The translations under genes and the position numbers were made by a program. The notes below the pieces were generated by a model. It was given only the letters and a program-made list of their open reading frames with translations, made no database searches and was not told the DNA's origin. Shown in pieces: positions 24,855 to 54,404 of a stretch of 64,000 bases of DNA (position 1 is the first letter of the stretch; every line of letters starts with the position of its first letter). Source of the DNA: Candidatus Omnitrophota bacterium (GTDB lineage Bacteria; Omnitrophota; Omnitrophia; Omnitrophales; Aquincolibacteriaceae); the NCBI GenBank assembly GCA_035352955.1, contig DAOPYQ010000005.1, forward strand, positions 45,231-109,230. The letters run 5' to 3'.

Positions 24855-25580
24855 TTATTTCGGATTGATAATATCTTCGGGCTTTAGCGAAACCGGCGGC
24901 CTCGATACAAGCACACCGTCCTGCAAATGATACGACCGTTCGTACTTCGCGGCCATTTCCTCATCGTGGGTTACGATCAAAAACGCCTGGCCTTCCTCTC
25001 GGTTCAATTCGTTGATCAACCCCATCACCGACGCAGCTGTTTCGGCATCCAGGTTCCCGGTCGGCTCATCACACAATACGACCGACGGATGGTTCACAAG
25101 CGCCCGGGCAATCGCCACCCGCTGTTGCTCCCCGCCCGAAAGTTCGGAAGGATAATGCGTGCGGCGGTTCCAGAGACGCACGCGCTTCAAGACATCTTTC
25201 GTCCAGTTCTTGTTCGGCTTCCCCGCGATCAGCGTCGGCAAAAGCACGTTCTCGTAAACCGTCAGCTCCGGAAGAAGATGATAGAACTGGAACACAAACC
25301 CGACATGGCGGTTGCGAACCCGCGCCAGTTCCCGCTCGGACATCTCGGTCATATCCTTACCGTCAAAAAGGATCTTCCCAAAATCCGGACGATCGAGTCC
25401 TCCCAAAAGGTGCAAAAGCGTGGATTTACCGCAACCGGATTTTCCGGTAATAAAAACCATTTCGCCTTTGCGGAGGATCACCTGAACCGACCGGAGAATT
25501 TCCAGTGTCCCGGCAGGGGTTTCATATTTTTTTCTGACATCAAACGCGCTGAGGAGCGGAACTTCTACAAGATTATTCAT
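24855..25580 (-). CDS. lolD: Lipoprotein-releasing system ATP-binding protein LolD
   Basis: GKSGCGKSTLLHLL, LSGGEQQRVAIARAL, VLCDEPTGNLD; paired with a LolC/E permease. Confidence 0.8.
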   Translation of the reverse strand: MNNLVEVPLLSAFDVRKKYETPAGTLEILRSVQVILRKGEMVFITGKSGCGKSTLLHLLGGLDRPDFGKILFDGKDMTEMSERELARVRNRHVGFVFQFYHLLPELTVYENVLLPTLIAGKPNKNWTKDVLKRVRLWNRRTHYPSELSGGEQQRVAIARALVNHPSVVLCDEPTGNLDAETAASVMGLINELNREEGQAFLIVTHDEEMAAKYERSYHLQDGVLVSRPPVSLKPEDIINPK

Positions 25581-26877: not shown

Positions 26878-26878
26878 A

Positions 26879-32922: not shown

Positions 32923-34017
32923 CTAAAGGACGAGATAGCCGGCTTTCACGGCATAGTGAACGATCGTCTTGAGGAAATCGTAGTCGGTTTTTGGCATCGG
33001 AATACCCGTCCCTTTGAGAATCTCGCAGGTATTCGTTGTATCAAAGGTCAGATGACCGTTCAAGTATCCCAGATACGGCTCCATGATCGCAAATACCATC
33101 TGCTCCTGCGCGTTCATCTTGGATTTCTGGAAATCCTTCGGATGCATCACCTCGACCGGCGGCATATTGGGGTATTCCTCTCTCGCGAGCCTCAAAAGCG
33201 TTCCGATCGAAGGCGGATTCGGCGCGACAAGGTGGTAAGCCTTGTTGATACTCCGAGGATCTTTCACGATCGCCGCGGTGGCCCGAATGACAAAATCGAT
33301 CGGCACAATATTGAACGTATTCTCAAGATGGGTCGGCAGTTTTGAAAGCGCCCCGTGGGCAAAAAGTTTAAAGAACGGATAAATCACGTTAAAATCCGAA
33401 ACCACGCCCGTCTCCGAATGCCCCACCACAATGCTCGGCCGGATGATCGTCGTCGGAAGACCCTTCGCCATCGCCTCACGGACCTTGGTCTCCGCCTTGT
33501 ATTTGCTGGACTCGTAATAATTCGCGAATCCCGGTTTGGCGGGAAGCTCATCCTCTTTGGAACAATGGTTCCAAATGCTCCCTGCTACGAATGCCGTACT
33601 GAAATAGATAAACCTCTCGAGTTTTCCCTTTTTTCGCAAATCCCAAGCCAGCTCAAGCGCGTGCTCGGTTCCGCCCACATTGATCTGTTGACATTCCTTT
33701 TCCGTACCGTTCAGAGCCGTAAGCGCGGCGATATGGTAGAAAACCTTGCACTCCTGCTCCAGGAACTGGAGGTCGTCTTTTTTGATACCGAACTTATGGT
33801 TCGTAACGTCCCCCTCGATCACGCGAAGACGCGCGTTCAGATGGGAATCCAAGCCGATCCCAGTCAAAAGTTTTCTCACGCGTTCGTCGTGGGTCTTCCG
33901 GTTCTTCCCGCGAGCAAGAATCGCGATATCCGCCTTGGTGGTCTCCAAAAGCTCCTTGATGAGGTCCTGCCCGAGAACACCGGTCGCCCCGGTCATGAAA
34001 ATAAGTTCTTTAGCCAT
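32923..34017 (-). CDS. Stand-alone thioester-reductase-type SDR (fatty acyl-ACP/CoA reductase-like, 'male sterility' NAD-binding domain)
   Basis: FMTGATGVLG Rossmann motif and YESSKYKAE catalytic YxxxK. It is the last gene of the KS/ACP operon. Confidence 0.65.
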   Translation of the reverse strand: MAKELIFMTGATGVLGQDLIKELLETTKADIAILARGKNRKTHDERVRKLLTGIGLDSHLNARLRVIEGDVTNHKFGIKKDDLQFLEQECKVFYHIAALTALNGTEKECQQINVGGTEHALELAWDLRKKGKLERFIYFSTAFVAGSIWNHCSKEDELPAKPGFANYYESSKYKAETKVREAMAKGLPTTIIRPSIVVGHSETGVVSDFNVIYPFFKLFAHGALSKLPTHLENTFNIVPIDFVIRATAAIVKDPRSINKAYHLVAPNPPSIGTLLRLAREEYPNMPPVEVMHPKDFQKSKMNAQEQMVFAIMEPYLGYLNGHLTFDTTNTCEILKGTGIPMPKTDYDFLKTIVHYAVKAGYLVL

Positions 34018-35305
34018 GATGCTTCCTTAATGCCAGACAGATGTTCTGGCCGCCAAACCCGAAAGAGTTCGAAAGCGCCACGTTCACATCCGAACGCCGC
34101 GCGGTATTGGGAACATAGTCCAGATCACATTCCGGATCCGGTTCCTCATAATTGATCGTAGGCGGCAGCACCGAATCGCGCATCGCCAGAAGACAGAGGA
34201 TCGCCTCCACCCCGCCCGCGGCCGCGATCATGTGCCCGAGCATGGATTTTGTGGAACTCGCCGGGATCTTCGCCGCGTACTCGCCCATCGCTTTTTTGAT
34301 CGCACGCGTTTCGAGCGCATCATTCACCGCCGTCGACGTTCCGTGCGCATTAATATAATCGATATTTTCCGGTCCGACACCCGTTTTTTCCATCGCGATC
34401 TCGATGGCCCGCGCGGCACCTCGAACTTCCGGATCCATATCGGTCAAACGGTAAGCATCGGCGGTAGAACCGTATCCCGCGATTTCGCCGTAAATATGCG
34501 CTTTGCGCCTGCGCGCGTGTTCAAGCTCTTCCAGGATCAAAACCCCGGAACCTTCGGCGATTACAAACCCGTCACGTTTTTTATCGAAGGGACGCGAAGC
34601 TTTTTCGGGTTCGTCGTTGCGCCGGGACAGTGCCGTCAAAAGGCTGAACCCCGCAACACCCATCGGGTAAATCATCGAATGGGAACCGCCGGCCATGATT
34701 ACATCAGCATCCCCGCGGCGGATCCATTCAAACGCCTCCCCGATTGCCTGGGACGATGCCGCGCAAGCGGTTAAACAATTCGACACCGGCCCGCGGATAT
34801 CAAAAAGCCTCGTCAGATGCGTCACCGTCATGAACGGCTGGCTCTCAAGTTCCTTCAACGCGGTCATGTTCCGGCTCGCGTGATCGAGATAACGGCCCTT
34901 GTCCACAAGTTCCCCGGCACCGGAGTTGAACGAGGCGACGATCGTTTTTACGAAGGGATCGAAATCAATACCGCTGTCGCCAGCGCCGAAATAAATACCA
35001 AAGCGGCGAGAATCCACGGAGAACGGCCGGAGACCCGCATCCTTATAGGCCTCGGCTGCAGCCTGCAACGCAAAAAACGTACTCCGGGTCGCGCACGCAA
35101 GCGGAGGATTACGCTCCAACCATTTCTCGAACGGGAATCCTTTCACCTCACCCGCGATCCGGGTCGCAAACGTCGAAGCATCAAAAAGCGTGATGGGACC
35201 AACCCCGGACTTCCCCTGCGTGACGCGCAACCAAGTGTCCCGTACATTGTTGCCGAGCGGCGTTACGGCACCCATTCCTGTGACGACAATCTTTCGTTTA
35301 GACAT
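34010..35305 (-). CDS. Beta-ketoacyl-ACP synthase II-type ketosynthase (catalytic Cys-His-His intact)
   Basis: IVVTGMGAVTPLGN, active-site TACAASS, and NAHGTST / GHMIAAAG histidines. The ATG at 35305 is 8 nt from the CLF stop. Confidence 0.85.
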   Translation of the reverse strand: MSKRKIVVTGMGAVTPLGNNVRDTWLRVTQGKSGVGPITLFDASTFATRIAGEVKGFPFEKWLERNPPLACATRSTFFALQAAAEAYKDAGLRPFSVDSRRFGIYFGAGDSGIDFDPFVKTIVASFNSGAGELVDKGRYLDHASRNMTALKELESQPFMTVTHLTRLFDIRGPVSNCLTACAASSQAIGEAFEWIRRGDADVIMAGGSHSMIYPMGVAGFSLLTALSRRNDEPEKASRPFDKKRDGFVIAEGSGVLILEELEHARRRKAHIYGEIAGYGSTADAYRLTDMDPEVRGAARAIEIAMEKTGVGPENIDYINAHGTSTAVNDALETRAIKKAMGEYAAKIPASSTKSMLGHMIAAAGGVEAILCLLAMRDSVLPPTINYEEPDPECDLDYVPNTARRSDVNVALSNSFGFGGQNICLALRKHHG

Positions 35306-36584
35306 GTTTGAACACCAGGGATGCGTTCTGTCCGCCAAAACCGAACGTGTTGAGAACGACAGAATTGACCTGACAGGACTCCGCTTTTCCGCGCACGAAA
35401 GGCAACGAGCACAAAGGATCCTGTTTTTCAAGATTTGCAACGGGCGGAACGATCTGCTGTTTCGCGATCAGAGCCGCGATCACCGCCTCCACGCCTCCCG
35501 AACCATAAAGAAGGTTTCCCGTCACCGGTTTTACGGCGGTCACGCGCAACTTTCCGAAATCTTTGGGGTAGAGAGAATGAATGGCCAACGCCTCCTGAAC
35601 ATCCTCCTGCGGGATACCGCTCCCGTTCGCGACAAGAACGTCTACATCCTCCGGATCGAGCGCCGCGTCTTCGAGCGCACGCCGAAGCGCGACACGCTTG
35701 CCCGTAAAATCGTCGGAATCCCGCGGATCGTAATTATGATCTGAGGCAGAACCGTACCCGCTGATCTCGGCATAAATGTTCACGCCGCGCTTCTTGGCAT
35801 GCTCGTAAGATTCAAGAACGAGGATACCCGCGCCTTCGCCGATCACGATCCCATCGTGGTTTTCGTCGAACGGGCAGTAAACCTTTTCCGGAGCCGCGGT
35901 TCGTTTTGAAAGAAACCCGAGCAAATGAAGGCGCGAGATCCCCATCGCATTAACCTTCGAGTCGGTGCCGCCGGCGAGCATGATGTCCGCGTCCCCGCGT
36001 TCGATCACGCGGTAGGACTCCCCGATCGCCTGCGTGCTGGCCGCCGTCGAGGTCGTGATGGTGTTGCTGGGACCCCGGAGCTGGTTCAGAATAGAAACAT
36101 GGCAAGCCGGCATGTTCGGCAGGTATTTGAGGAACCAAAGCGGAAAAAGCGCGCGGATACCGTCCTGACCGAACTTTGTCATGGAAAAATGCCCGTTCGC
36201 GTCGACGCCGTTTTGGAACCCGACCCCCATTTCGTCGAGGTCGTTGTTGATAATGCCGGTGCCGAGCGTGACCCCGATGCGCGTCGGGTCACATTCCGCG
36301 GCAGAAAGTTTTGCGTCCCGGAGCGCGAGACGGCTCGCCGCAACCGCAAACGAAATCTCCCGTGACATCAGTTTGAGGGACTTTCGGTTCTCGACGTAAT
36401 CTTTCGGTTCAAATTCCGTGACACGTCCCACACCGTTCAGCGGAAACCCTCCAAGGTTCAACGCTTCGGCACTGCGAACGGCGGAGCGCGCGTGTACCGC
36501 GGCATCCCAGTAAGACTCCCAACCGTTGCCGCAGGGCGTGATCACGCCAAACCCCGTCACAACAACGCGCCGTCGCGTGCTCAT
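35298..36584 (-). CDS. Ketosynthase-like chain-length-factor partner (KS-beta); catalytic Cys to Thr and both His to Asn
   Basis: KS fold (VVVTGFGVITPCGN), but the active site is TSTAAST instead of TACAASS, and ANGSG / TGNLLYG replace NAHGT / LGHMI. Confidence 0.8.
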   Translation of the reverse strand: MSTRRRVVVTGFGVITPCGNGWESYWDAAVHARSAVRSAEALNLGGFPLNGVGRVTEFEPKDYVENRKSLKLMSREISFAVAASRLALRDAKLSAAECDPTRIGVTLGTGIINNDLDEMGVGFQNGVDANGHFSMTKFGQDGIRALFPLWFLKYLPNMPACHVSILNQLRGPSNTITTSTAASTQAIGESYRVIERGDADIMLAGGTDSKVNAMGISRLHLLGFLSKRTAAPEKVYCPFDENHDGIVIGEGAGILVLESYEHAKKRGVNIYAEISGYGSASDHNYDPRDSDDFTGKRVALRRALEDAALDPEDVDVLVANGSGIPQEDVQEALAIHSLYPKDFGKLRVTAVKPVTGNLLYGSGGVEAVIAALIAKQQIVPPVANLEKQDPLCSLPFVRGKAESCQVNSVVLNTFGFGGQNASLVFKHV

Positions 36585-37075
36585 TGTGAGAGACCGCTTT
36601 GGAATGAGTTTTCGTTCGCCCCCTGCGGTCCACTCTGCGTGACAGGCTGGCTGATCTTCGCGCGAACATTGAAATGTTTCATAAAAGCATCATGGAACGT
36701 GATCGATTTTGTTTGATCCGGCGAAAGGCCCGCCACCGCCATCAGAAGAAGTTTCGCCTTAGCAACCACTTCCCCCGCGGAAGTAATCGTCGCCTCAAGC
36801 CATCCGCCGTCGGTCCCGAGAGCTTCGGACCACGCCTCGATCCGGATCGGCGTTCCCGGAACGGGAACACCCGCGATTGTCGCGCTCTCGATCTTGGCAA
36901 AAATCAGATCTTTCCGGTAATCGCTTTCAGCACCGACGAGAAGCCCGCCGGTCTGCGCCATCATTTCGATAAAAAGAACTTCGCTGGAATACGGGGCTTG
37001 GGGAACTTTGGAGGTTGTGACGGCCCTCCGGCCTTTCAGAATGGAATCGACTTTGTCGAGAAGAAGCCAGCGCAT
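36581..37075 (-). CDS. Hotdog-fold 3-hydroxyacyl-ACP dehydratase (ApeI/FabA-Z-like)
   Basis: Size, operon position and ATGA coupling to neighbours. The sequence is weakly FabZ-like. Confidence 0.55.
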   Translation of the reverse strand: MRWLLLDKVDSILKGRRAVTTSKVPQAPYSSEVLFIEMMAQTGGLLVGAESDYRKDLIFAKIESATIAGVPVPGTPIRIEAWSEALGTDGGWLEATITSAGEVVAKAKLLLMAVAGLSPDQTKSITFHDAFMKHFNVRAKISQPVTQSGPQGANENSFQSGLSQ

Positions 37076-37076
37076 G

Positions 37077-37463
37077 TTATGTCCAGATCATCGCCTGGGC
37101 GCCCACAAGATCGCCGGAACGAAAAAAATGCCCCTCGCCCCGATACACGGTCTTCTGGTTCCGGGTGGATCGCCACTCCATTTCAAAATGATCGCCTGAC
37201 CGGCGCTTGATCCGCATACCCTGGAACCCTTCGAGCCCCATCCATGCCTCGCCGCAAGCTTTAAAAAATGCTTCCTTGGCAGTAAAAAGTTCGGCGAAAT
37301 CCCGGAGGGACAACCGCCGGAACGCGCGGCGTTCGGAGACATTCAGAAAACGCTCGCGGACATACTCTTTGTGGCGAGAAAGAAATTGTTTGACCCGGGA
37401 GCAAGAAACGAGGTCGACGCCGATGCCCCGCAGCGAGGCCGGCTTATTTTTTACGAGCAGCAT
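37077..37463 (-). CDS. acpS: Holo-ACP synthase (4'-phosphopantetheinyl transferase, AcpS family)
   Basis: GIGVDLV...FTAKEAFFKA motifs; 128 aa. Confidence 0.75.
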   Translation of the reverse strand: MLLVKNKPASLRGIGVDLVSCSRVKQFLSRHKEYVRERFLNVSERRAFRRLSLRDFAELFTAKEAFFKACGEAWMGLEGFQGMRIKRRSGDHFEMEWRSTRNQKTVYRGEGHFFRSGDLVGAQAMIWT

Positions 37464-37861
37464 TTATCCGAACAAGAACTCTTTTTATCCAAACGGTCGT
37501 TGAGATAGCGGAGGATCATCTTCACCGTAAAGTAGTCCGCCAACTTCGTGATCTGGGGATCCTTGGTGAACTCGTCGAGTTCGAGGTACGGAAGTTTGGC
37601 ACGGAGCTCCGCGAGACCTTCCGGCGTGACCATGCCCTCTTTCACGAACCGTTCATCATTCAGAAGATGACTCGGAAAAAGGTCCCCGGCGGGGATCTTG
37701 AGATCGAAGGTCTTTTCCAGGCGGAAAATCACATCGATGAAATCGATCGACTCGGCACCAAGGTCGCGCTTCAGGGAAGCTTCCGGGGTGATATCGCTTT
37801 CCTCCACACCGAGGGCGGAAGCAAGGGTCTGCTGAACTTTCGAAAAAATTTCTTTTTCCAT
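37451..37861 (-). CDS. Acyl carrier protein, long form (136 aa) with a Cys-rich C-terminal tail
   Basis: Phosphopantetheine attachment motif LKRDLGAESIDFIDV, and a C-terminus ...DKKSSCSDKCCS. Confidence 0.75.
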   Translation of the reverse strand: MEKEIFSKVQQTLASALGVEESDITPEASLKRDLGAESIDFIDVIFRLEKTFDLKIPAGDLFPSHLLNDERFVKEGMVTPEGLAELRAKLPYLELDEFTKDPQITKLADYFTVKMILRYLNDRLDKKSSCSDKCCS

Positions 37862-37892
37862 GATGACTTTAATCTCCTTTTTCCTACTATCG

Positions 37893-38306
37893 CTATGACG
37901 CTGCTATTGATGTCTGAGGATTCTTTACTTTCGCCACGGTCAGCTTGGCGGACACGGCCACTTCGCCATGATAATACAATTTCGCGTCCCAGGTCGTTTC
38001 GTCCTCCCCCGTCCCGAGAAGCGTCAAACGGCTCTCCCATTCGTCGCCGGGTCGGAGGTACTTGGTGAACCTTGTCGCGCGGATCTGTTTCAAAAAATAA
38101 TGACTTCCGGTATTGTTTTTGACCGACTCAAGATACCGTTCCGCGGTCTGCTTGAGCATTTCAAGTGCAAGAACTCCGGGCAGAACCGGAAAATCCGGAA
38201 AATGATCCTTAAAGAACTCCGAATCCTCGGGGATACGGCCGCACGCCGCGATCCCTTCCCCTTCTCTTACCCAAAGTACCCGTTCGATCGAAAGCACCGA
38301 TATCAC
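37893..38306 (-). CDS. FabZ-like 3-hydroxyacyl-ACP dehydratase
   Basis: HFPDFPVLPGVL, the FabZ active-site motif. GTG start. Confidence 0.75.
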   Translation of the reverse strand: MISVLSIERVLWVREGEGIAACGRIPEDSEFFKDHFPDFPVLPGVLALEMLKQTAERYLESVKNNTGSHYFLKQIRATRFTKYLRPGDEWESRLTLLGTGEDETTWDAKLYYHGEVAVSAKLTVAKVKNPQTSIAAS

Positions 38307-38326
38307 CTTTTCTCTATGCGACTCCT

Positions 38327-38947
38327 TTAGCGGACTTTAAGAACATACAATCCGTTCAGAATCCGGAAACCGGCAAGCCAAGTATAAAAAGGACTGAATG
38401 TCACGGCCTCAAGTTCCTGCCGCTCGAAAAACCCCAACCACTCTTCATGTTTACGGAACTGATGGGGATGGTCGAGCCATTCCAGATTCAACATCCGGTC
38501 GCGAAAGATCGTCCAGAACCGGCCAAGCTTATGATGATATAAATCCTCCACGACGATCACTTTGTCCCGCGTCACTCTTCGAACCTCCCGAAAAAGAGCC
38601 TCGGGGTCCGGCACATGGTGCAACATCGTCACCAGCAACGTCACGTCAAAACTTTTATCCGGGAACGGGATCCGGCCACCGTCATAGATCACCACGGGCG
38701 CCTGCTGATATCCCGGCTTTACCACGTCGACAACGAGATGCTCATGCCCCCGCTTCTTCATCGGCGCCGCGTAAAACCCCCAGCCACCACCAAGATCCAG
38801 AATCCGGCTCTTCGGAGGAATCTGTTTTTCAAAAAGCTGCGCAATTCCTTCGGCTCTCTTCTCGAGAGAGCCGCAAAAACAATGCCTCACAAGCCCGTCC
38901 AGCACACGGCGGAGAAAGGCCTGCAGATCTTTTTTGATAGAAGTCAC
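38327..38947 (-). CDS. Class I SAM-dependent methyltransferase
   Basis: ILDLGGGWGFYA glycine-rich SAM motif. GTG start. It is the first gene of the minus-strand lipid operon. Confidence 0.7.
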   Translation of the reverse strand: MTSIKKDLQAFLRRVLDGLVRHCFCGSLEKRAEGIAQLFEKQIPPKSRILDLGGGWGFYAAPMKKRGHEHLVVDVVKPGYQQAPVVIYDGGRIPFPDKSFDVTLLVTMLHHVPDPEALFREVRRVTRDKVIVVEDLYHHKLGRFWTIFRDRMLNLEWLDHPHQFRKHEEWLGFFERQELEAVTFSPFYTWLAGFRILNGLYVLKVR

Positions 38948-39153
38948 GATAAGAATAGAGACGGCATTAATATTTTGAGCGTGGAATTATAGCACAGCCC
39001 TTCTTCATGCCCCAAGAAATCTTTTTAGCATCGCATGCAAAATATCACCTGCCGTTTTTTTTCTTGCCCCGCACACCGCGACCACGTTTCTCTAGTCCTT
39101 GGAAAGTGAATTGAATATTGATTTTTCGAGAGAATGCGGCTATCGTATCGCCC

Positions 39154-39912
39154 ATGACATCACCTCTTAAAGGCAAAGTTGCTCTTATCACAGGTGCGTC
39201 CCGCGGAATCGGCAAGGCTACCGCCCTCCGTCTTGCGGACGACGGCGTCGCCATCGCGGTCAATTATCTCCAAAACGAGGACGCCGCAAAGAAAACGGTG
39301 GAGGAGCTCCAAGCCAAGGGCGTCAAAGCTGCGGCCTTCCAATGCAACGTCGGAGATCTCGACGCACACAACGAACTGATCGAGGGCGTGGTGAAAACGC
39401 TCGGCACGATCGACATCCTGGTCCACAACGCGGCGCTCGGCGCTTTCAAACCCGTCCACCGCCTCAAGATGAACCAGTGGGACCTCTCGATGAACATCAA
39501 CGCCAAGGCCTTCCTCGCGCTGACCCAGAAGGTCCTCCCCATCATGGAACCCAAAAAGGAAGGCTCGATCATCGCGATCTCGAGCCTTGGTTCGCACCGG
39601 TTCATCCCCAATTACGGTGCGATCGGGATTTCAAAAGCCGCGATGGAATCGGTGATCCGTTACCTCGGGGTCGAGCTGATGCAAAAAGGCATCCGCGTAA
39701 ACGGCGTTTCCGGCGGGTTGGTTGACACGGACGCGCTCAAGGCGTTCCCTTTTTTCGATGCGTTCAAAAATGAAGTGCTGAAGCGAACTCCGGCAGGGCG
39801 CATCGGAAAGCCGGAAGATCTTGCCCGCGTTGTCGCATTCCTCTGCTCGCCCGAATCTTCGTGGATCGTCGGTCAGGTCCTCATCGCCGACGGCGGCCTT
39901 TCGCTCATCTGA
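39154..39912 (+). CDS. 3-oxoacyl-ACP reductase-type SDR (FabG/ApeQ-like ketoreductase)
   Basis: KGKVALITGASRGIGKA and a catalytic YGAIGISKAA (YxxxK). It is divergent from the KS operon. Confidence 0.8.
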   Translation: MTSPLKGKVALITGASRGIGKATALRLADDGVAIAVNYLQNEDAAKKTVEELQAKGVKAAAFQCNVGDLDAHNELIEGVVKTLGTIDILVHNAALGAFKPVHRLKMNQWDLSMNINAKAFLALTQKVLPIMEPKKEGSIIAISSLGSHRFIPNYGAIGISKAAMESVIRYLGVELMQKGIRVNGVSGGLVDTDALKAFPFFDAFKNEVLKRTPAGRIGKPEDLARVVAFLCSPESSWIVGQVLIADGGLSLI

Positions 39913-39930: not shown

Positions 39931-40749
39931 TCAAAATCCGTAAGCCGTTGCCGCCATCTGTTCCGCACTCATCTTGTAGACGTCACTGAACGCCCGGCTA
40001 AAAGATTCTCCCGTTTTCATCCTTGCCAGGAGATCCCGGACCGTCCCGAATCCGTATTGATCCACGATATATTTAACGACCGCGTACCCGTGCTCATACA
40101 ACCCCGGAGGATAACTCCCATCTTTGTTCAGTGTCGTTCGCAGTTTAAAAAAATCCTTCGGGGGCAACCGGGCCAACGCCGGTTGCTTCTGGTAAACGTC
40201 CTTCGCGACATCCGGAGTCCGGTTGCGGATGCCAAGATCTTCATACTCCGCCAACCCTTCATTCATCCATCGCGGCAGATCCACACTCCCAAGCGACGCG
40301 ACGGCCAGGTGAGAAAGCTCGTGAATAAAAGTACTCTTGAAAGGATTGGGATCCACAGGCGGTCCCTTGACGCCGCGAAAAAGGATGCGGATCCTTTTAT
40401 CCTGATAAAATCCGCTGCTGATACGGTCCGGCTCATCCACCTTCCGGTAGTTCTCCGGTGAAAGCAGGATCACCTCATAAGCCCCGGACGGCTGGAAATC
40501 AAAATCATCCTTGACGGATCTCAATGATTCTTCGATCTGAAGAACAACCGTTTCTTTTTCGGCGGGAGTAAGCGGACCGTCATACAGGACCTTGAAGTTC
40601 TGGACGGTAAAGCTCTCAAACTGTTCTTTGGTCTTTTTTTCGTACGATAGGCGTTGATACGTTCCCTTGTCAAAACGGATGGCCTGCGCTGAGACAGGAT
40701 TCAAAACGATCGATACGGTCAAAAACAGCAGGGCGACTCCCGTTCTCAT
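39931..40749 (-). CDS. Secreted zinc metallopeptidase, Peptidase_MA-like (HExxH...NEGLAEY)
   Basis: Signal peptide MRTGVALLFLTVSIVLNPVSAQA, then HELSHL followed by WMNEGLAEYED. Confidence 0.6.
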   Translation of the reverse strand: MRTGVALLFLTVSIVLNPVSAQAIRFDKGTYQRLSYEKKTKEQFESFTVQNFKVLYDGPLTPAEKETVVLQIEESLRSVKDDFDFQPSGAYEVILLSPENYRKVDEPDRISSGFYQDKRIRILFRGVKGPPVDPNPFKSTFIHELSHLAVASLGSVDLPRWMNEGLAEYEDLGIRNRTPDVAKDVYQKQPALARLPPKDFFKLRTTLNKDGSYPPGLYEHGYAVVKYIVDQYGFGTVRDLLARMKTGESFSRAFSDVYKMSAEQMAATAYGF

Positions 40750-40805
40750 AAAAAAAATTCTCCCTTTCCGTTTTTTTTCGACCGTCACCCGACTTCCAGG
40801 AAATG

Positions 40806-41393
40806 TTATTTCCAAAGCCAACCGCAGGAAGCGCATTTTTTCTGCCCGGGAAGCATTTCCGCTTCACATTCCGGACAGGCAAACGGCTTTTTCCAGTCCC
40901 ATCCACAGGAAAGACATCCGTCCTGGTCCGGCAATATTTTTACCCCGCACTCAAAACAAAGGACGGTGCCGGGGGCGAGGATCATTTCATCAAGCTCTGA
41001 AATGATCTTATCGATTTCCGGAACAGAAAAAAGCCTCGCCTCCGGGCCAGAATCCCTGTGCTTTTTGAGAACGTCCTTAAGGAATTTGATCAACCCGTCC
41101 CAAAAGAAACGTTCCGGGTCGCCGTACTTTTCGGCATGCAAGTCGACCGCGAGATAGCGTGCCAAAAAGCCCAGGGAAGGATCCATCAAAACGGTTTCGT
41201 CCCGCTTCCGGAGAGCGGTTAAAAGAAGCTCGATGTGCTTCTTGATATATTTCGGAAGGTTTCGCCGCATATGGCTTGCATAAAACCACCAAGCGATCGC
41301 CGCAATACAAATGCCCCCACCCATAAGCATTACTAATGCCACGGGATCCCCATTGGCAAAACGCGCAAAAACCGTATCGAAAGATTCGGACAT
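40806..41393 (-). CDS. Membrane protein with a C-terminal double zinc-ribbon
   Basis: One TM helix; CFECGVKI...CLSCGW and CPECEAEM...CASCGW. Confidence 0.5.
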   Translation of the reverse strand: MSESFDTVFARFANGDPVALVMLMGGGICIAAIAWWFYASHMRRNLPKYIKKHIELLLTALRKRDETVLMDPSLGFLARYLAVDLHAEKYGDPERFFWDGLIKFLKDVLKKHRDSGPEARLFSVPEIDKIISELDEMILAPGTVLCFECGVKILPDQDGCLSCGWDWKKPFACPECEAEMLPGQKKCASCGWLWK

Positions 41394-41404: not shown

Positions 41405-41614
41405 CTAGAACGTAACCTTACCCGGGACAGTAGCTCCGGGAACATACTCGGCCGTATCAAATCCTACTTTTTTTGCTGTTGTTTCGCCGTCCGGACCCGT
41501 GTGCCAATATCCCGCGCCGGCACCAACGCGGACGCAACCCGCGAAACCCAACACGCCAAGCGCAACGATCAATATGACGCCGAAGCATCGACTCCGATCA
41601 GACCTGTTATTCAT
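41405..41614 (-). CDS. Small lipoprotein (69 aa), hypothetical
   Basis: Signal peptide with lipobox LGFAGC. Its start overlaps the lnt stop by 8 nt, which suggests translational coupling. Confidence 0.45.
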   Translation of the reverse strand: MNNRSDRSRCFGVILIVALGVLGFAGCVRVGAGAGYWHTGPDGETTAKKVGFDTAEYVPGATVPGKVTF

Positions 41615-43148
41615 TTGCCAACTTCCGGCGGAGAAAAACCGCGAGAATCAAAAAAAGAGCTGCGGCAACGTACGGAAAAAGGAATCCGCCCCGTCTGTAA
41701 AAAGTAGTTTCTGTTGCGAGCGGCAGGTCCAAAGTCTCATGCCCCAGTTCAAAGATCTCGCCGCCCTTCTCACCGCGAACGGTCGCAAGCAATTCCCCGC
41801 GGCGGGAAATAAACCCGGAAACCCCGGTATTCCCGGCCCGCACAACCGCCACACCGTTTTCGACGGCCCGGAAGACCGAGGCCTGAAAATGCTGGAACGG
41901 AGAACCCGTTTTCCCGAACCATGCATCGTTCGTGATCACGGTCAGGAATTTCGCTCCGCGATCCGCGTATTCGCGAGAAAGATCGGTAAAAACATCCTCA
42001 AAACAGATCAGCACGCCGAACGGCCAATCCTCGCGCGCCCACCGGAAAAGCACCGGCACGGTCCCTGCGCTGAAATCGCTGATCCCGAGAGACTCCGCGA
42101 TCGGTGTCAGCCAGAAAAAAATCGGCTTCAGCGGGATAAATTCCCCGAACGGTACAAGGCGGAGCTTGTCGTAACGGCCAAGACCCACGCCGTTCTTATC
42201 GAGGAGATACGCGCTATTGTAAACCTCCTTCTCCGTCACCCAGTAGAGCGCCCCGATCAAAAGAGGCGTCTGAACTTCCTTGGCAAGCTGCGTGATCCTC
42301 GCCGCGGCAACATCCCCGTTGAAATACCCCGGGAACGCGGCTTCTGGCCAAATGATAAGGTCGGGCTGTTTTACCGCCGCCAACTGCGTCAACTTAATGT
42401 AGATTTCGAGGATCTTCTCCTTCGCCATCAGCTCCCATTTGACCGACTGGGGAATGTTCCCCTGAAGTACCGAAACGCGGAGATATTCCTCCGGCTTTTC
42501 CTCCCGGCCAAGCCGCCGGTCCCCGTAGACCATGAGCCCGATCAAAATCCCAACGCTTACGGCAAAGAGCGCCGCCGGAACCCCCCGCTTGCGCAATTTT
42601 TTCGGAGCAAAAAGTTCGAACACGCACACGTTCACGATTGCGATCAGAAAGCCGAGACCGTACGCCCCCCAAATACTTGCGGACTGGATCATCACCGGGT
42701 ACGGGGCCTGGGAATACCCCAAAAGATTCCATTCCATCCCAAAAATCGGGACTTCCGAACGGAGGATCTCAATGACGGTCCACGCAAGCGCAACCCAAAG
42801 AACCCGGAACCAGAGCGGCGCCTGGGCTTTGCGGACCGCATACGCGAGGCAAGTAAAACCCGTGAGATAAACCGTCTGCATCAACGTCCATAGGATCCAC
42901 CCGGCGGGCGCCACATGCGTCAACCAATGCATCGAAAGACCGAAGAAGACGAGACCAAAAACAACACCGGCTCGTGCGGCTTGAGCCAGTGTCTCCGCTT
43001 TGCGGATGGCAAAAAACAGCGGGACAAGCGCGACCCAAGCAAGAAAACCCCAGGCGGGATGAGGATAGCTTAAGGTGAGAAGAATACCGGAAGAGGCGGC
43101 CAGGAAGGCCCGCGAGCGGAGTCCCAAAGAGAAGGCTCTTTTATTCAT
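41607..43148 (-). CDS. lnt: Apolipoprotein N-acyltransferase
   Basis: 8 TM N-domain plus a CN-hydrolase domain with the catalytic triad conserved (IIWPEAA, YDKLRLVPFGEFIP, VLICFEDVF). Confidence 0.9.
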   Translation of the reverse strand: MNKRAFSLGLRSRAFLAASSGILLTLSYPHPAWGFLAWVALVPLFFAIRKAETLAQAARAGVVFGLVFFGLSMHWLTHVAPAGWILWTLMQTVYLTGFTCLAYAVRKAQAPLWFRVLWVALAWTVIEILRSEVPIFGMEWNLLGYSQAPYPVMIQSASIWGAYGLGFLIAIVNVCVFELFAPKKLRKRGVPAALFAVSVGILIGLMVYGDRRLGREEKPEEYLRVSVLQGNIPQSVKWELMAKEKILEIYIKLTQLAAVKQPDLIIWPEAAFPGYFNGDVAAARITQLAKEVQTPLLIGALYWVTEKEVYNSAYLLDKNGVGLGRYDKLRLVPFGEFIPLKPIFFWLTPIAESLGISDFSAGTVPVLFRWAREDWPFGVLICFEDVFTDLSREYADRGAKFLTVITNDAWFGKTGSPFQHFQASVFRAVENGVAVVRAGNTGVSGFISRRGELLATVRGEKGGEIFELGHETLDLPLATETTFYRRGGFLFPYVAAALFLILAVFLRRKLANE

Positions 43149-43152
43149 AAGG

Positions 43153-44730
43153 CTAGCCTTTCGTCCGCCGCCTCAGGACCGACATAAAAAAAATCCCGAG
43201 CATTATCAAACCAAGCCCGTACGGCAACAACCAACCACCGCGGCGATAAAATGTCCGGCGATCCGTGAGAGGAAGATCGTAAGTGATCTGCCCCTTCACG
43301 GAAACGCTCTGTCCTTTTTCATCCTGGACCATCCCGAGAACCACCCCGCGATCCGAAACGATCCCCGAAATGCCGGTGTTCGCGGAACGCACAACGGGAA
43401 TACCGTTCTCGACGGCACGAAAAATAGAAGTGTACAAATGCTGCAAAGGCGCCCCGCCAACCTCGAACCAGGCATCATTCGTAAGGATCACAAGAAAACG
43501 GCATCCGCAATCGGCCAACTGGCGCACGAGATTCGGAAAAACATCTTCCACACAAATGATCACTCCGAAAGGCCATCCCGCTCCCGTCCACTGAAAGATC
43601 CCGAAATCCTCTCCGGGAAGGGTCGCCTCGATGCCCATCGCGCGTGCAACCGGTGTCATCCAAAAGAGGACCGGACGGGCCGGGATATATTCTCCAAACG
43701 GCACGAGCTTCAGCTTGTCGTAGCGTTCACGGGTCACGCCTTTTTGATCGATAAAATAAGCGCTGTTCCGTACGTTCTGGTCTCCTTCCCATTTTAACGC
43801 GCCCACGACCATCGGAACCCCGATCGAACTCGCGAGATCTTTCACCCTCTGCGTATCAATATCCCGGCCCAGGACCCCCGGGAAAGAGGTTTCGGGCCAC
43901 ACAATCAGATCGGAACGATCCGCGGCCGCCTGTTGCGCAAGCTCTTCATAGACCTGGAGAATGTTTTCCTTCTCCACGGGGTCCCATTTTTCGGATTGAT
44001 CGATATTCCCCTGCAGGACGGACACACGAAGCGAATCTACGGACGGCGCAGCGTGTGCGATCGACCATGATCCGTAACAAAAAAGAGAACCGATCACCGC
44101 AGTCATGGTCAAAAAAAGCGCCGCCATCACCGTCGGCGCAGAAAGTTTCCGCTTCATGAAGGAAGCCTGGCAAGAACCGGGATCCGCGACCAGCACGAGA
44201 GTCTTCGCGACGCAAACGTTCACAGCCATCACAAAAAAACTCAGCCCATAAGCTCCGACAATGTCCGCGATCTGAATGATCGCGCGATACGGCGCCTGGG
44301 AAAACGCCAAGAGGTTCCATCCGAGCCCAAGCACGGGGATCTCCGTCCTGACAAATTCCATAAAAACCCACGCCGCGGACGTCCACACGATCTTAGCCGG
44401 AATACTTTTCAGAGAACGGCTGCCCCAATAGGTCAACGCGGCAAAAATCGCGAAAAAACAGGCCTCCAGCACAAAAAAGAAGATCCAGCCTCCCACGCTC
44501 ACCACGGACATCCAGTCCATCGTCACATTGAAGAAAACCGCGCCGGTGATCCATCCGTACCACACCGCGCGCCAGAGGCTGCGGGCGGAACGGATCGCCA
44601 AAAGAAGGGGCACAAGCGCGATCCATCCGAAGAGGGGCCAACCGGGATAAGGAAATGCGACCAAAAGCATCAGACCACTCAAGAAAGCCAGACGCTTGCA
44701 CATCGGTTTTTGAGGCAGGATCTTACTCAT
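43153..44730 (-). CDS. lnt: Apolipoprotein N-acyltransferase paralog (second, tandem copy)
   Basis: Same architecture with the triad intact ([30 protein letters not shown]). It lies 4 nt upstream of the other lnt, and its start is 4 nt after the secA stop. Confidence 0.85.
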
Positions 44731-47404
44731 TTTTCCCGCAACATTTTTTGTATTTTTTTCCGCTGCCGCAGGAGCAGGGATCGTTACGGCCAACCTTGGG
44801 CTCCGCGCGATGCACGGGCTCCGGTTTTTGATCCGGAGAGCCTCCGCGGGGCGAAAAATGGGTGTCGAAACCTTCCCCCGCTGCGGGCCCCGGCCGGGAT
44901 TTCGGCGCGGTCTCTTTGATCGCCTGGGTTTCGGGATGAAGGTACTGGGCCTTCGGCGTTTCGAGAACGCCTGCGGTTTTTGTTTCGTGAACGACCTGCA
45001 CGCGGAAGAGAAGCTCGATCGCCTCTTCCTTGATACGATCCGTCATTTCATCGAACATATTGAACGCTTCCCGCTTGTACTCAACGAGCGGATCCCTCTG
45101 TCCATACGCCCTCAGGCCGATCCCCTCCCGGAGATTGTCGAGGCCGTAAAGATGCTCTTTCCATTTCGTATCGATCACCTGCAGGAGGATGAATTTTTCG
45201 AGATACTGCGTCTGTGCGGCGCCGAAAACCTTCTCTCGTCTTTGAAACTCCTCCTGAACGGTCTGATTGATCGCCTCAAGAAGCGTATCGATCTCATACT
45301 GGTTGTCCTCCACGCATTTGCGAAAATCCACGCCAAACCGTTCCCCAAGCGCCGCGATCAAACCCTCCGGGTTCTTGTCCTCTTCCCGCATATCGGGATG
45401 GACATATGTCGCGACCATGCCTTCGACCACATTTTCGATCATCTCAAACACATGCTTTTTCAGCTCCTCGGGACTGCCTTTCAGAATGAGATCCCGCTCC
45501 CCGTAGATCAACTCACGCTGGCGGTTCATCACGTCATCGTATTCAAGCAGATGTTTGCGGATCTCGAAATTGTGGGCCTCGATCCGTTTCTGGGCCGTTT
45601 CCATCGCACGGCTCACGAACGGGTGCTGGATCTCTTCCCCTTCCTGAAGACCGAGGCGCTGCATCATGCCGGAAATGCGGTCCGCTCCGAAAAGCCGCAT
45701 GAGCTCGTCCTCGAGCGAAATATAGAATTTCGAGGAACCGGGATCACCCTGACGGCCGCAACGGCCGCGGAGCTGGTTGTCGATGCGACGCGCTTCATGA
45801 CGCTCGGTCCCGATCACGGCAAGCCCGCCTTTGTCCGCGACCCCGGGGCCGAGCACAATGTCCGTCCCACGGCCCGCCATGTTCGTGGCAATCGTCACCA
45901 CCGCAGGCTGACCGGCCTGGGCAACGATCTCGGCTTCCTTTTCGTGATATTTGGCGTTAAGCACGGTATGCGGAAGATTGATCTGATGAAGCATTTTGCT
46001 CAGACGCTCGGACCTCTCGATCGAGATCGTACCCACAAGCACCGGACGCCCTTTTTTATGTTCTTCCACGACCTCGCGCACCACCGCTTCAAATTTTTCT
46101 TTTTCGGTCCGGTAGATACAATCCGCGGAGTCGACTCGGACGCACGGACGGTTCGGCGGCATGACGACCACGTCCAGTTTGTAGATCTTGTCGAACTCGA
46201 CCGCTTCGGTCGCCGCGGTACCGGTCATCCCGCCCAGTTTCTTGTACATGCGGAAATAATTCTGGAACGTGACCGTCGCGAGCGTCTGGTTCTCCCGCTT
46301 GATCTCAACGCCTTCTTTGGCTTCCAGTGCCTGGTGAAGACCGTCCGAAAAGCGGCGGCCCGGCATGAGACGGCCCGTAAACTCATCGACGATCAATATC
46401 TCACCATCTTTGACCACGTACTCGACATCGCGCGCAAAAAATTCCTTCGCCCGAAGCGCCGTGATGATGTGATGGCGTTCGGACACCGTATCGGAGTCGT
46501 GCATATTGCTGACGCCCATCGCGCGCGCGGACTTGGTCTCGCCCGATTCCGTCAGGCGGATCGTCTTCGCCTTTTCGTCGGAGATATAATCGCATTCCTT
46601 TTTAATCTCTTCGAGTTTCGCTTTCCATTCCGGATCGACCTCTTCCTTAGCAATCCGATATCCTTTCAAAGACAGCGCGGCGCGCTGGGCCCTGAAATAT
46701 TTGTCCGTGGAATCTTCCGCGGGACCGGAAATGATAAGCGGTGTACGGGCCTCATCGATCAGGATCGAATCGACTTCGTCCACGATCGCGTAATGGAGCG
46801 GACGCTGGACGCGCATCTCGAGACCAGTAACCATGTTGTCACGAAGATAATCGAACCCGAATTCGTTGTTCGTTCCGTACGTGATGTCGGCGTTGTAGGC
46901 CTTCTGACGTTCTTCCTGCGGGATATCGTGCTGGATCACGCCGACGGTAAGGCCGAGAAATTCATAAATCGGCCCCATCCAATTGCGGTCACGGCGAGCC
47001 AGATAATCGTTCACGGTCACAAGGTGGACGCCCTTTCCTTCGAGCGCGTTCAGATAGACCGGAAGTGTCGCAACCAGCGTTTTCCCCTCGCCGGTGGACA
47101 TCTCTGCGATCTTCCCCTTGTGGAGCACAAGTCCGCCGAGGATCTGCACGTCAAAATGCCGCATCTTGGTCGTTCGACGTGACGCCTCCCGAACCACCGC
47201 GAACGCCTCGGGGAGAATGTCGTCGAGCGTCTGCCCCTCGGCAAGCCGCTTCCTGAATTCGTCCGTTTTGGCGCGGAGTTCGGCATCCGTAAGTTTCTGG
47301 ATCGCCGGCTCGAGCGCGTTGACCTCCGCCACAACCGGCCAGAGGGTTTTAAGGGTGCGGGTATTTTGCGTTCCGAATATTTTCTGCAGAATAAAGTTAA
47401 TCAT
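44723..47404 (-). CDS. secA: Preprotein translocase ATPase SecA
   Basis: DEAD motor, [13 protein letters not shown] and HWD domains, and a C-terminal zinc finger [14 protein letters not shown]. The start is at the internal ATG ([11 protein letters not shown]). Confidence 0.95.
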
Positions 47405-47484
47405 ATGTTTCACGCAACGCGTAAGCCCAACGCGCAACGAAAGAGCCTTATCGTTGAACGTTGCGCCTCGCGCGTTGTGCGCCT

Positions 47485-48347: not shown

Positions 48348-49458
48348 CTAGACTTTAGAAACATTCTGCTTTAAATAAACTTGAATAAATTCATCCAGAT
48401 CCCCGTCCATCACCGCCTGCCCGTTCGAAGTTTCAACGTCCGTGCGGTGGTCCTTCACCATCGTATAAGGATGGAACACATAAGAGCGGATCTGAGAACC
48501 CCATTCGATCTTTTTCTTGGGCCCGTATTTTTTCGCAAGCTCGGACTCCTGCTCCTGGCGGTAACGCTCATAAAGTCGCGCCCGGAGAACTTTCATCGCA
48601 ACGGCTTTGTTCTGACCCTGCGAGCGTTCGTTCTGGCATTGTACCACGATGCCGGTCGGGATGTGGGTCAGGCGGATCGCGCTTGACGTTTTATTCACGT
48701 GCTGGCCGCCGGCGCCGCCCGCGCGGTACGCATCGATACGAAGATCCGCTTCATTGATAACAACTTCCGGAACATCGTCGACTTCGGCGATCACGTCCAC
48801 GGATGCGAACGAGGTGTGCCGGCGCTTGTTGGCGTCAAACGGAGAAATACGCACGAGCCGGTGAACGCCCGCCTCCGCCTTCAAATAACCGTAGGCCTGC
48901 GGTCCTTCAACAAAAAAAGTCGCACTTTTGATCCCTGCTTCCTCCCCCTGCATCATGTCGATCATCTCGACTTTGTAATCGTGCTGTTCGCAATAGCGGG
49001 TATACATACGAAAAAGCATCTGCGCCCAGTCGCAGGCTTCGGTCCCGCCAGCACCGGCATTGATGCTAACGATCGCGTTATTAGGGTCAAAGGGGTCGGT
49101 GAAAAGGCGCTGAAATTCGAGATTCTCGACTTCTTGCGCGACTTTTTTGACCTCCTCGGCAAGCTCTTTGAGGGACTCGGCCTGATTCTCGTCGACCATG
49201 TCGAGGAGTTCCGCGAGATCCTGGCAGGAGCGATTCGCGTGGTGCCAGGGATCGACAACTTTTTTGAGGACTTTGAGCCGCTCGACGGTCTTCTGGGCTT
49301 CCGACTGGCGGTCCCAGAAATCAGGCGCCGTCATTTTTTGATTGATGGATTCTACTTCCTGTTCTCGCCCCGAAAGGTCAAAGATACCCCCTTATCTCTA
49401 GGAGTTTTTCCTTGAGATCCGTGAGGCGGTCCTTGAGCGAGGCGATTTCTTCTTTCAT
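48348..49458 (-). CDS. prfB: Peptide chain release factor 2, requiring a programmed +1 ribosomal frameshift at about 49378-49383
   Basis: Frame 0 reads MKEEIASLKDRLTDLKEKLLEIRGYL, then TGA. Reading resumes in +1 as DLSGREQEVESINQKMTAPDFWDRQ..., with SPF and GGQ motifs. The cassette AGGGGGTATCTTTGAC matches the E. coli prfB shift site. Confidence 0.9.
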
Positions 49459-52983: not shown

Positions 52984-53637
52984 CTATCCGTTCTGCGGGA
53001 TCGTTCCGGCAATCAGCTCTTTCAGATCGCTCTCGAAATCAGCCAGGATCCGGCACAGTCCCAGATTCCAGCCTTCGCTCAAAGCTGCCGGTGAAATATT
53101 TTTCATCGGAACTTCCTGAGAATAGATCTTCTGCAACACCACGTCCGGTCCGCTCTCGTCCGTTTCACTTACCGTTATTTTCAGTCGCAAAACCGCTTTG
53201 GGAGCGTTCGCATCACGGTAGTCCCCATAAATATCCACCAGGGTTCCGTCGATCCCGTAGAAGGGACAGGACGCTTCCCCAGGCTTCAATACGAACCGGA
53301 CCAGCGGAGATCCTTTCAGCCATGTCGCCGCCTGGTCGTGGATCATCTCGGCCGGAGCGGTCATCAGCTGATTGTAGAAATCGGATTCGTAGGCCGTCTC
53401 CCCGGTCCGGTAAAGCAGGTACCGGTCCACCGCCTGCGGCACCGAGGAAAATGAATTGAGCCGCAAAGAAACCGGCAATCCGGCATAGCTCCCATGCCCC
53501 TGCGAACTGACGTCCAGTGAATAGGTCCTGATATCCGGGTACTTCCGTTCAAGTTGAACGCAACCGGCGGCAACAAAACAAAGTCCGGCGCCGATCAGGA
53601 TCGAGCAAAGAAATTTTAATAGATTGGGCTGTTTCAT
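52984..53637 (-). CDS. ABC-type transport auxiliary lipoprotein (PqiC/YmbA, DUF330-like)
   Basis: Lipobox FVAAGC; size and position directly after an MCE gene; ATGA overlap with that MCE gene. Confidence 0.6.
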   Translation of the reverse strand: MKQPNLLKFLCSILIGAGLCFVAAGCVQLERKYPDIRTYSLDVSSQGHGSYAGLPVSLRLNSFSSVPQAVDRYLLYRTGETAYESDFYNQLMTAPAEMIHDQAATWLKGSPLVRFVLKPGEASCPFYGIDGTLVDIYGDYRDANAPKAVLRLKITVSETDESGPDVVLQKIYSQEVPMKNISPAALSEGWNLGLCRILADFESDLKELIAGTIPQNG

Positions 53638-54404
53638 CGGTCAAACCTCGATTTAGGGGGCGCCTCGCCAAAGATCATTTGGGAGGGGTATTTTTTCCCC
53701 GTTGAAGTGATATCTTCCACATTTTTTGCGATCGTCTGCAGACGCGGCAGGGTCTGATCCAGCTTTGCCACGACCGACGGCAGCTCCGCCGAAGCCCGGT
53801 TAAGATTGGCGATCATCGGATAGATATCGCTATCCATCTTGTTAAGCAATTTGTCCACCGCGTCATTAAAACGGCTGGCCACGCTCGGCGCGGACGGAAT
53901 ATAAAGGTTCTCGGGCTTCCAGGGGAACTTCATCGGAGGAGGAACTTCCGCCGGATCCGAAAATCCGAGCTCGAGATAAACAAGCCCGGTAATCCCGATT
54001 CCGACCATTTTCGCGCGAAAAGTATGCTTCGCGACCATGAAATCCAACAACGCCTGAGCTTCTTCCCGGCTTTTATCCTTTAATCGTGGAAAATATTTGG
54101 TTTCAACCTCAAAGACCACTCCGACCATGCGGTAATTCGCCGCCATCGTCTCGGGCGATTGATCTTTCCCGTACTTGTCCTTAAGAAAGACGATCTCCCG
54201 GACTTTTCCGATCTTCACCCCGTTGAGTTTGACTTGGGCTCCCACGTCAAGCCCCTGGACCGATTGTTCGAAATAAGTCTCGACAAGGACCGGCGGCTTT
54301 TCCAGAAAACTTCCCGCGCCGAACAACAACAGTCCGGCACACAGGAACGCCAGCGACGCGAGCGTGAACAGCCCGATCTTAAAATACCGCGTTTTCTCAC
54401 TCAT
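53634..54404 (-). CDS. MCE-domain protein (MlaD/PqiB-like substrate-binding subunit)
   Basis: N-terminal TM helix plus an MCE domain (VQGLDVGAQVKLNGVKIGKV). Confidence 0.75.
   Translation of the reverse strand: MSEKTRYFKIGLFTLASLAFLCAGLLLFGAGSFLEKPPVLVETYFEQSVQGLDVGAQVKLNGVKIGKVREIVFLKDKYGKDQSPETMAANYRMVGVVFEVETKYFPRLKDKSREEAQALLDFMVAKHTFRAKMVGIGITGLVYLELGFSDPAEVPPPMKFPWKPENLYIPSAPSVASRFNDAVDKLLNKMDSDIYPMIANLNRASAELPSVVAKLDQTLPRLQTIAKNVEDITSTGKKYPSQMIFGEAPPKSRFDR

Follow-up and report, generated by a model that had tools for sequence, protein, structure and literature searches.

The stretch of DNA considered here (the window) comprises 64,000 nucleotides of contig DAOPYQ010000005.1 from an assembly of a Candidatus Omnitrophota bacterium (GCA_035352955.1), and on its minus strand, directly after secA, lie two adjacent genes for apolipoprotein N-acyltransferase (Lnt), which we refer to as lntA and lntB. 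Lnt catalyses the final step in the maturation of lipoproteins. It is an antibiotic target, and its gene is nearly always present in a single copy. The features that make up the locus are as follows.

41405..41614, minus strand: small lipoprotein gene, 69 amino acids, with the lipobox F-A-G-C.
41607..43148, minus strand: lntA, 513 amino acids, probable ancestral apolipoprotein N-acyltransferase orthologue, with Pfam and NCBIfam matches.
43153..44730, minus strand: lntB, 525 amino acids from its ATG, an extra, fast-evolving Lnt paralogue, with an intact open reading frame.
44723..47437, minus strand: secA, first gene of an apparent secA-lntB-lntA-small lipoprotein transcription unit.

A first-pass annotation of this DNA had described two back-to-back Lnt genes directly after secA, encoding 513 and about 525 amino acids and separated by 4 nt. 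The open reading frames (ORFs) bear its coordinates out, and show two full-length Lnt genes arranged head-to-tail. The TAG stop codon of lntB and the ATG of lntA are 4 nt apart, the TAA stop codon of secA overlaps the ATG of lntB by 8 nt (ATGAGTAA), and the ATG of the small lipoprotein gene overlaps the lntA stop codon, again by 8 nt. Because the genes are so tightly packed, we infer that secA, lntB, lntA and the small lipoprotein gene form a single operon and are co-transcribed, and that translation of LntB is coupled to that of secA. On the minus strand we found no promoter-like site from secA to the small ORF; weak terminator-like matches within the genes exceeded the number expected from shuffled sequence only slightly (23, compared with 13.9). 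An alternative TTG start for lntB at 44793, within secA, would give a protein of 546 amino acids; the 525-amino-acid form is the one also picked by four independent gene callers in public data. Both proteins are already annotated as apolipoprotein N-acyltransferases in public records, and no third lnt copy was found in the window.

The sequence comes from metagenome assemblies only, and the tandem might in principle be an artefact of assembly or binning, in which two strains were collapsed or a chimeric join was made. The first-pass annotation had itself raised this concern. However, the exact LntB protein occurs directly after secA on six contigs, from three Joint Genome Institute (JGI) samples, two NCBI metagenome-assembled genomes (MAGs) and one ENA assembly. 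Four of the six (L011-L014; up to 178 kb) cover the complete tandem, their DNA being identical, and two short contigs end 117 nt into lntA or before lntA. Five contigs (L011-L015) match the window at every base over as much as 13.6 kb, and the sixth (L016) has only 11 mismatches, all at its secA end. In addition, the two copies differ far beyond what would be expected of strain variation (44% identity), and both GC content and codon usage are uniform. With lntB following secA in six contigs and the whole tandem identical in four of them, we reject an artefactual origin, the probability of which we consider negligible.

Judged by their sequences, both window proteins are members of the Lnt family. 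They align with one another end to end (44% identity over 509 residues, E 2e-156), and each contains PF20154 (LNT_N; E = 2e-35 and 5e-30) followed by PF00795 (CN_hydrolase; E = 2e-28 and 2e-29), in the expected order. Each also scores well above the curated cut-off of 132.9 bits for the NCBIfam equivalog TIGR00546 'lnt' (338.6 bits for LntA and 302 bits for LntB), and each has sequence matches to every solved Lnt in the PDB (E 4e-35 for LntA and 2e-23 for LntB). For LntB, an AlphaFold2 model based on an alignment of 65 sequences has high confidence throughout (pLDDT 92.4, pTM 0.93) and shows the helix pattern of transmembrane helices (TM) 1-7, an alpha-beta-beta-alpha domain and a C-terminal TM8. 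When this model was used to search the PDB with Foldseek, the top 24 matches were all Lnt from E. coli or P. aeruginosa (TM-score 0.75-0.83, E ~1e-23), with soluble nitrilases ranking after them at a TM-score of ~0.37 (normalised to query length).

The best matches of both LntA and LntB are proteins from Candidatus Omnitrophota / Omnitrophica MAGs, and it is against these relatives that the tandem stands out. The first-pass annotation regarded a second lnt as unusual, and in this it was right: none of the 16 distinct syntenic relatives in the Omnitrophota (whose SecA proteins, where near full length, are 80-85% identical to that of the window) has a second lnt, and no second Lnt region was present within the 4-kb flanks of any of 80 diverse Lnt loci from JGI metagenomes. 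The further question that it posed, whether the tandem is conserved in relatives, is answered in the negative, each of the 16 having a single lnt. Ten loci from GTDB species representatives have a single Lnt region each, with secA immediately upstream in nine, and a single secA-linked lnt is found both on the contigs of the nearest LntA homologues (P0004, P0003, P0002) and on those of the proteins nearest LntB in our tree (P0065, P0070, P0071). Among 5.8 billion clustered proteins, no LntB homologue of more than 50% identity was found other than its own entry (the best non-self match is at 50%), and LntB so far comes from one species-level population. The order prfB, band-7 lipoprotein, secA, lnt, small ORF is kept in the relatives, as, farther along, are genes for a short-chain dehydrogenase/reductase (SDR), a methyltransferase, an ApeI/FabA-like dehydratase, an acyl carrier protein (ACP), an ACP synthase and a ketosynthase. 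A second lnt would thus appear to have been gained between secA and the original lnt of a secA-lnt-small lipoprotein locus.

Comparison with the same relatives points to LntA as the ancestral orthologue and to LntB as the extra copy. Identity to the single Lnt found in relatives is 56-68% for LntA, as opposed to 43-50% for LntB. LntA also tracks the relationships of SecA, being closest to the Lnt of the relative L023 (SecA 84.6% identical, Lnt 67%), and lntA retains the overlap with the downstream small lipoprotein gene that is seen in relatives. Tajima relative-rate tests with seven outgroups from within the phylum counted 83-104 changes unique to LntB and 37-53 unique to LntA (p 3e-7 to 3e-3); the same test applied to LntA and its orthologues gave no significant difference (p 0.18-0.92). 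By these counts LntB is evolving about twice as fast.

The first-pass annotation also held that the two genes are too divergent to be a recent duplicate, a view that our analysis strengthens. Third codon positions of lntA and lntB are 37% identical, i.e. saturated, and in a neighbour-joining (NJ) tree based on Kimura distances LntB was sister to LntA alone in none of 100 bootstraps; together these results rule out a recent tandem duplication of lntA. Gene conversion between the two is ruled out by the fact that they have only one rare residue state in common, compared with 16 shared by LntB and P0065, 11 with P0070 and 10 with P0071 (background median 2). In the NJ tree LntB falls within the same family-level Omnitrophota clade as LntA, on a long branch (0.56, compared with 0.22 for LntA), and groups with P0065, P0070, P0045, P0071, P0072 and P0068 in 81 of the 100 bootstraps. 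The proteins of this group are the single secA-linked Lnts of other species. A clear case for horizontal transfer from the P0065/P0070/P0071 lineage is nevertheless not established by this grouping, given the length of the LntB branch, the fact that only 16 sites discriminate between the groups, the mostly ancestral nature of the states that LntB shares with the P0065 group, and the GC content and codon usage of lntB, which match those of the host and of the neighbouring genes. We found no flanking repeats or mobile-element scars at lntB, and no region of SecA with an affinity shifted towards the P0065-like group. From its sequence the origin of LntB is old, and three possibilities present themselves: LntB may have been transferred from a related lineage of Omnitrophota, may stem from an older duplication since lost elsewhere, or may be a duplicate that underwent strong acceleration, with the grouping in the tree then being a long-branch artefact.

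To locate functional residues we aligned both window proteins and 152 homologues with Lnt from E. coli K-12 (RefSeq record), and for a wider check we used 80 further Lnts from diverse metagenome contigs, giving 232 other Lnts in all. The catalytic triad, corresponding to E267, K335 and C387 of E. coli, is E269 (42342-42344), K328 (42165-42167) and C382 (42003-42005) in LntA, and E280 (43891-43893), K339 (43714-43716) and C393 (43552-43554) in LntB; all three columns are invariant in the 152 homologues and in the 80 metagenome Lnts. The claim that the triad is intact in both copies therefore held on alignment, and the motifs quoted for it are correct, the two proteins reading WPE, YDKL(R/K)LVPFGE and IC(F/V)EDVF. 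Both LntA and LntB also have the equivalents of E. coli W237, E343, E389, N412, D413, W415 and F416, and W237, E343 and E389 are on the list of essential residues in E. coli (PMC3850990).

Next to its catalytic cysteine, at the position of E. coli Y388, LntB has a valine (Val394; 43549-43551). Y388 is one of seven residues absolutely required in E. coli (PMC3850990). An aromatic residue is otherwise the rule here: LntA has Phe383, which is typical of the clade, the 152 Omnitrophota homologues have Phe (150) or Tyr (2), and the 80 diverse metagenome Lnts have Tyr (40), Phe (39) or Trp (1), so that valine occurs in LntB and in none of the 232 other Lnts checked. In E. coli neither Y388A nor Y388W rescues an lnt deletion; the Y388W mutant still forms the acyl-enzyme, and Y388 has been assigned by the authors to the second, acceptor-dependent step of the reaction (PMC5500890). 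In the structure of the E. coli enzyme, Y388 is in contact with Gly145 (loop L1); it links the membrane and nitrilase domains and contributes to the placement of Cys387 (PMC5500888).

Other peculiarities of LntB lie elsewhere in the protein. Glu423 (43462-43464) occupies the position of E. coli G417, right after the Trp-Phe pair (W415/F416) that follows the conserved Asn-Asp motif, a position at which 66 of the 80 diverse Lnts have Gly and none has Glu; the end of the lid loop reads GIEAT, as opposed to GISDF in the clade; and ~13 residues are inserted between TM6 and TM7. Identity to the clade consensus falls to 52.8% in the nitrilase domain and 58.1% in the lid loop, the minima among the close clade being 66.1% and 71.0%. 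In the 152 homologues, 122 columns are conserved to at least 90%; LntB deviates at 16 of these and LntA at 4, and close relatives deviate at a median of 1. The roles of F365, P232, G417 and K418 were searched for in the papers on Lnt structure, and nothing was found in the literature searched.

We note that LntA has a peculiarity of its own. Glu139 (42732-42734) falls in the column of E. coli P147, which is Gly in 144 of the 152 clade members. This residue sits in loop L1, the structural partner of Y388 in E. coli (PMC5500888). The presence of Glu139 in LntA and Val394 in LntB may be a coincidence, or may reflect complementary divergence of the two copies.

Several observations argue for LntB having been under long-term purifying selection as a folded enzyme with a competent triad. 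That the gene has been maintained is suggested by an ORF of 525 codons that is intact despite saturated synonymous divergence, by the fact that LntB retains the conserved state at 106 of those 122 columns (87%) and has host-like codon usage, and by the confident full-length model and the apparently translationally coupled position directly behind secA, an essential gene. The first-pass annotation went a step further and spoke of two active copies. The part of this statement that concerns the triad stands; activity of both copies goes beyond the evidence, Val394 being at the position of the essential Y388. Indeed, LntB might be catalytically impaired or non-canonical, whether as a pseudoenzyme or as a gene in slow decay, with LntA doing all of the N-acylation. 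BCG_2279c of Mycobacterium bovis BCG, which cannot N-acylate lipoproteins (PMC3850990), would then be a counterpart. The absence from LntB of an aromatic residue that all 232 other Lnts have, that helps to position Cys387 through its contact with Gly145 of loop L1 in E. coli (PMC5500888), and whose replacement by Ala or Trp there abolishes complementation (PMC5500890), is what such an account would predict, as are the roughly twofold rate, the 16 deviations at the 122 conserved columns and the confinement of LntB to one species. Known second Lnt copies, moreover, cannot replace the first (PMC3850990). The signs of maintenance set out above nonetheless speak against impairment, as does the preservation of the triad and of the remaining essential residues, whereas BCG_2279c has the change C387S. 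We regard an impaired LntB as the main rival to the reading favoured below, less likely but serious.

The two proteins might, conversely, be plain redundant isozymes, each performing the same N-acylation of the same substrates and retained for dosage or robustness. In favour of this, both score above the cut-off of the equivalog model, both carry the triad, and they are encoded in one apparent operon. Copies kept for dosage normally stay similar, however, and here the two are 44% identical with no sign of gene conversion (the single shared rare state), the rates are strongly asymmetric, and there are changes unique to LntB beside the nucleophile. Because of the asymmetry in rate we consider redundancy the least likely of the mechanistic readings, with only a small chance of being correct.

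The reading that we favour, and to which we give about an even chance, is that the housekeeping function belongs to LntA and that LntB serves as a specialised or auxiliary paralogue, comparable to Lnt2 alongside Lnt1 in Streptomyces. A role of this kind for LntB seems the most likely because LntB has evolved at about twice the rate of any orthologue and has changed at otherwise fixed positions around the active-site cavity (Val394, the Glu after the Trp-Phe pair, and the altered end of the lid loop). LntA would carry out canonical ping-pong N-acylation. As LntB retains the membrane domain with its eight helices, the nitrilase-like domain, the triad and most of the invariant residues, it has presumably been kept by selection and can probably form an acyl-enzyme, which would make it likely that Cys393 is still acylated; its second step or its substrate preference, on the other hand, is likely to be altered. 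LntB might then either have a shifted preference for acceptor or donor, or support LntA in the way that Lnt2 of Streptomyces supports Lnt1. The suggestion in the first-pass annotation that the two copies differ in specificity fits the pattern of changes in LntB, as far as sequence can indicate.

A number of points weigh against our favoured reading. The activity and specificity proposed for LntB, and its co-transcription with secA, are predictions from sequence and a structural model. Since Y388A is inactive in E. coli (PMC5500890), Val394 may mean that LntB has lost canonical activity, not that it has gained a new specificity. Some of the LntB 'deviations' are normal in other phyla, where the P232 position is often Asp (34 of the 80 diverse Lnts) and the F365 position Thr (7 of 80), and for this reason we down-weight most of the deviations other than Val394 and regard few of them as truly unusual; the Q427 position, too, is variable among the 80. 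Finally, the recovered contigs are identical and lntB shows no polymorphism, so that the ratio of nonsynonymous to synonymous substitution rates (dN/dS) is not measurable and relaxed selection is possible.

It is also conceivable that LntB has been neofunctionalised outright, as an acyltransferase with an Lnt fold that uses a different target or a different acyl donor by way of a re-shaped pocket (Val394, the lid loop and the residue after Trp-Phe). We think this improbable. A particular subset of lipoproteins would be a possible target in that case, for example the small lipoprotein encoded downstream. If neofunctionalisation has taken place, there would be two chemically distinct classes of N-acylated lipoproteins in a bacterium that has lol genes and, probably, an outer membrane.

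The small lipoprotein is of interest in its own right. Homologues lie directly after lnt in 13 of the 15 loci of relatives that were examined, with the mature sequence C-V-R-[VL]-x-G-x-A-G-Y..VGFDT, and the window protein (41405-41614) has no match to a Pfam or NCBIfam family. It is thus a conserved, uncharacterised and lnt-coupled lipoprotein that could be a dedicated substrate or partner. The first-pass annotation had taken the lipoprotein genes nearby as support for two copies of lnt with differing specificities. This argument does not hold, because the SPFH and small lipoprotein genes are syntenic in relatives with a single lnt, which makes neighbouring lipoprotein genes uninformative about the duplication; the band-7/SPFH lipoprotein (lipobox FSGC) occupies the same position beside the single lnt of relatives.

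The window also contains genes that bear on the envelope of the host, as follows.

24855-26922, minus strand: lolD-like ATPase gene and a single LolC/E-family permease gene, next to lysS; the permease scores above the TIGR02212 cut-off.

The permease is of the LolC/E type (TIGR02212, 378 bits compared with a cut-off of 362). On account of these lolCE- and lolD-like genes the host is probably diderm and equipped for lipoprotein traffic to the outer membrane. We note that a single permease gene adjacent to a lolD-like gene resembles an arrangement of the LolDF type. In some bacteria with LolDF, lnt is dispensable. An arrangement of this type might have a bearing on how fast Lnt evolves in the clade, in which Lnt is ~62% identical where SecA is ~82% identical.

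Several other features of the neighbourhood deserve mention. Upstream of prfB (48348-49334) there is a classical programmed +1 frameshift site of release factor 2 (RF2), AGGGGG TAT CTT TGA C, at 49377-49390 on the minus strand, with a leader ORF of 26 codons; the frameshift causes prfB to be split into two ORFs in mechanical calls. After the small lipoprotein gene comes a gene for a 195-residue membrane protein with a C-terminal double zinc ribbon that falls below the Pfam cut-off (40806-41393, minus strand), followed by one for a Peptidase_MA_2 protein (39931-40836, minus strand) that is present in some relatives (L018); the gene content between lnt and the SDR gene differs among species. Farther on, positions 32923-39912 hold a fatty-acid- or aryl-polyene-like biosynthetic cluster, comprising genes for a short-chain dehydrogenase, a methyltransferase, an ApeI/FabA-like dehydratase, an ACP, a 4'-phosphopantetheinyl transferase, two ketosynthases and a reductase-like protein. 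As its position near lnt is conserved in relatives, this cluster is unrelated to the duplication. On the other side, 8 kb from the lnt pair and unrelated to it, the region 52984-54404 (minus strand) encodes a lipoprotein that weakly matches, at a score under the cut-off, the 'ABC-type transport auxiliary lipoprotein, LBF_0736 family'; it adjoins genes for an MlaD-domain protein and ATP-binding cassette (ABC) components, in agreement with the label 'PqiC-like' given to it earlier.

The immediate impact of these findings is small, concerning as they do one uncultured species and an interpretation drawn from sequence and a model. Nevertheless, LntB appears to be a natural variant that has the triad and is without the 'essential' aromatic residue, and it could be used to test whether the role of that residue lies in recognition of the acceptor or in coupling of the two domains. 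It could also show how the specificity of Lnt drifts. More broadly, dual-Lnt arrangements have so far been described in Actinobacteria, and our analysis suggests that they also arise in a candidate phylum whose members probably bear an outer membrane; the literature searched yielded no account of dual Lnt in Omnitrophota or in any other lineage with an outer membrane.

How, then, does the pair compare with known systems? Both window proteins have the two-domain architecture, the triad and the W237/E343/E389/W415/F416 residues of the Lnts of E. coli and P. aeruginosa (among others PDB 5N6H, 5VRG, 5XHQ, 5N6M and 8B0K), although LntB is only ~22-25% identical to these in sequence and differs from them further in its ~13-residue insertion between TM6 and TM7. 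At Y388 of the E. coli enzyme LntA has Phe and LntB Val, and where E. coli has one essential lnt there are two lnt genes here. A parallel is offered by Streptomyces scabies, in which, according to the summary in PMC3850990, Lnt1 is necessary and sufficient and Lnt2 is needed only for efficient N-acylation. There, as here, a genome encodes two homologues that both have the catalytic residues. S. scabies is a monoderm actinobacterium, however, whereas the Omnitrophota host is probably diderm, and the genes described here, unlike those for Lnt1 and Lnt2, are adjacent and apparently co-transcribed with secA. Because LntB nests within the Omnitrophota Lnt clade, its sequence points to an origin independent of that of Lnt2.

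M. bovis BCG likewise has a functional Lnt and a second, divergent homologue, BCG_2279c, which can neither N-acylate lipoproteins nor compensate for the first (PMC3850990). BCG_2279c has lost the nucleophile (C387S), whereas LntB keeps Cys393 and the whole triad; moreover, the M. bovis BCG genes are not in tandem, as they are here, and BCG_2070c is fused to a Ppm domain. Since the second Lnt cannot replace the first in either Streptomyces or M. bovis BCG (PMC3850990), precedent would seem to speak for a second copy that is auxiliary or impaired no less than for a second full enzyme of different specificity. A parallel in genomic arrangement is provided by Myxococcus xanthus, which has lspA1 and lspA2 in tandem in the lgt operon and additional copies, lspA3 and lspA4, in the myxovirescin biosynthetic gene cluster (PMC8689077). 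The enzyme duplicated there is a different one (signal peptidase II), and no link to a biosynthetic cluster is visible for lntB. Nonetheless, lspA1 and lspA2, like the lnt pair described here, represent an enzyme of lipoprotein maturation that has been duplicated in tandem inside a housekeeping operon.

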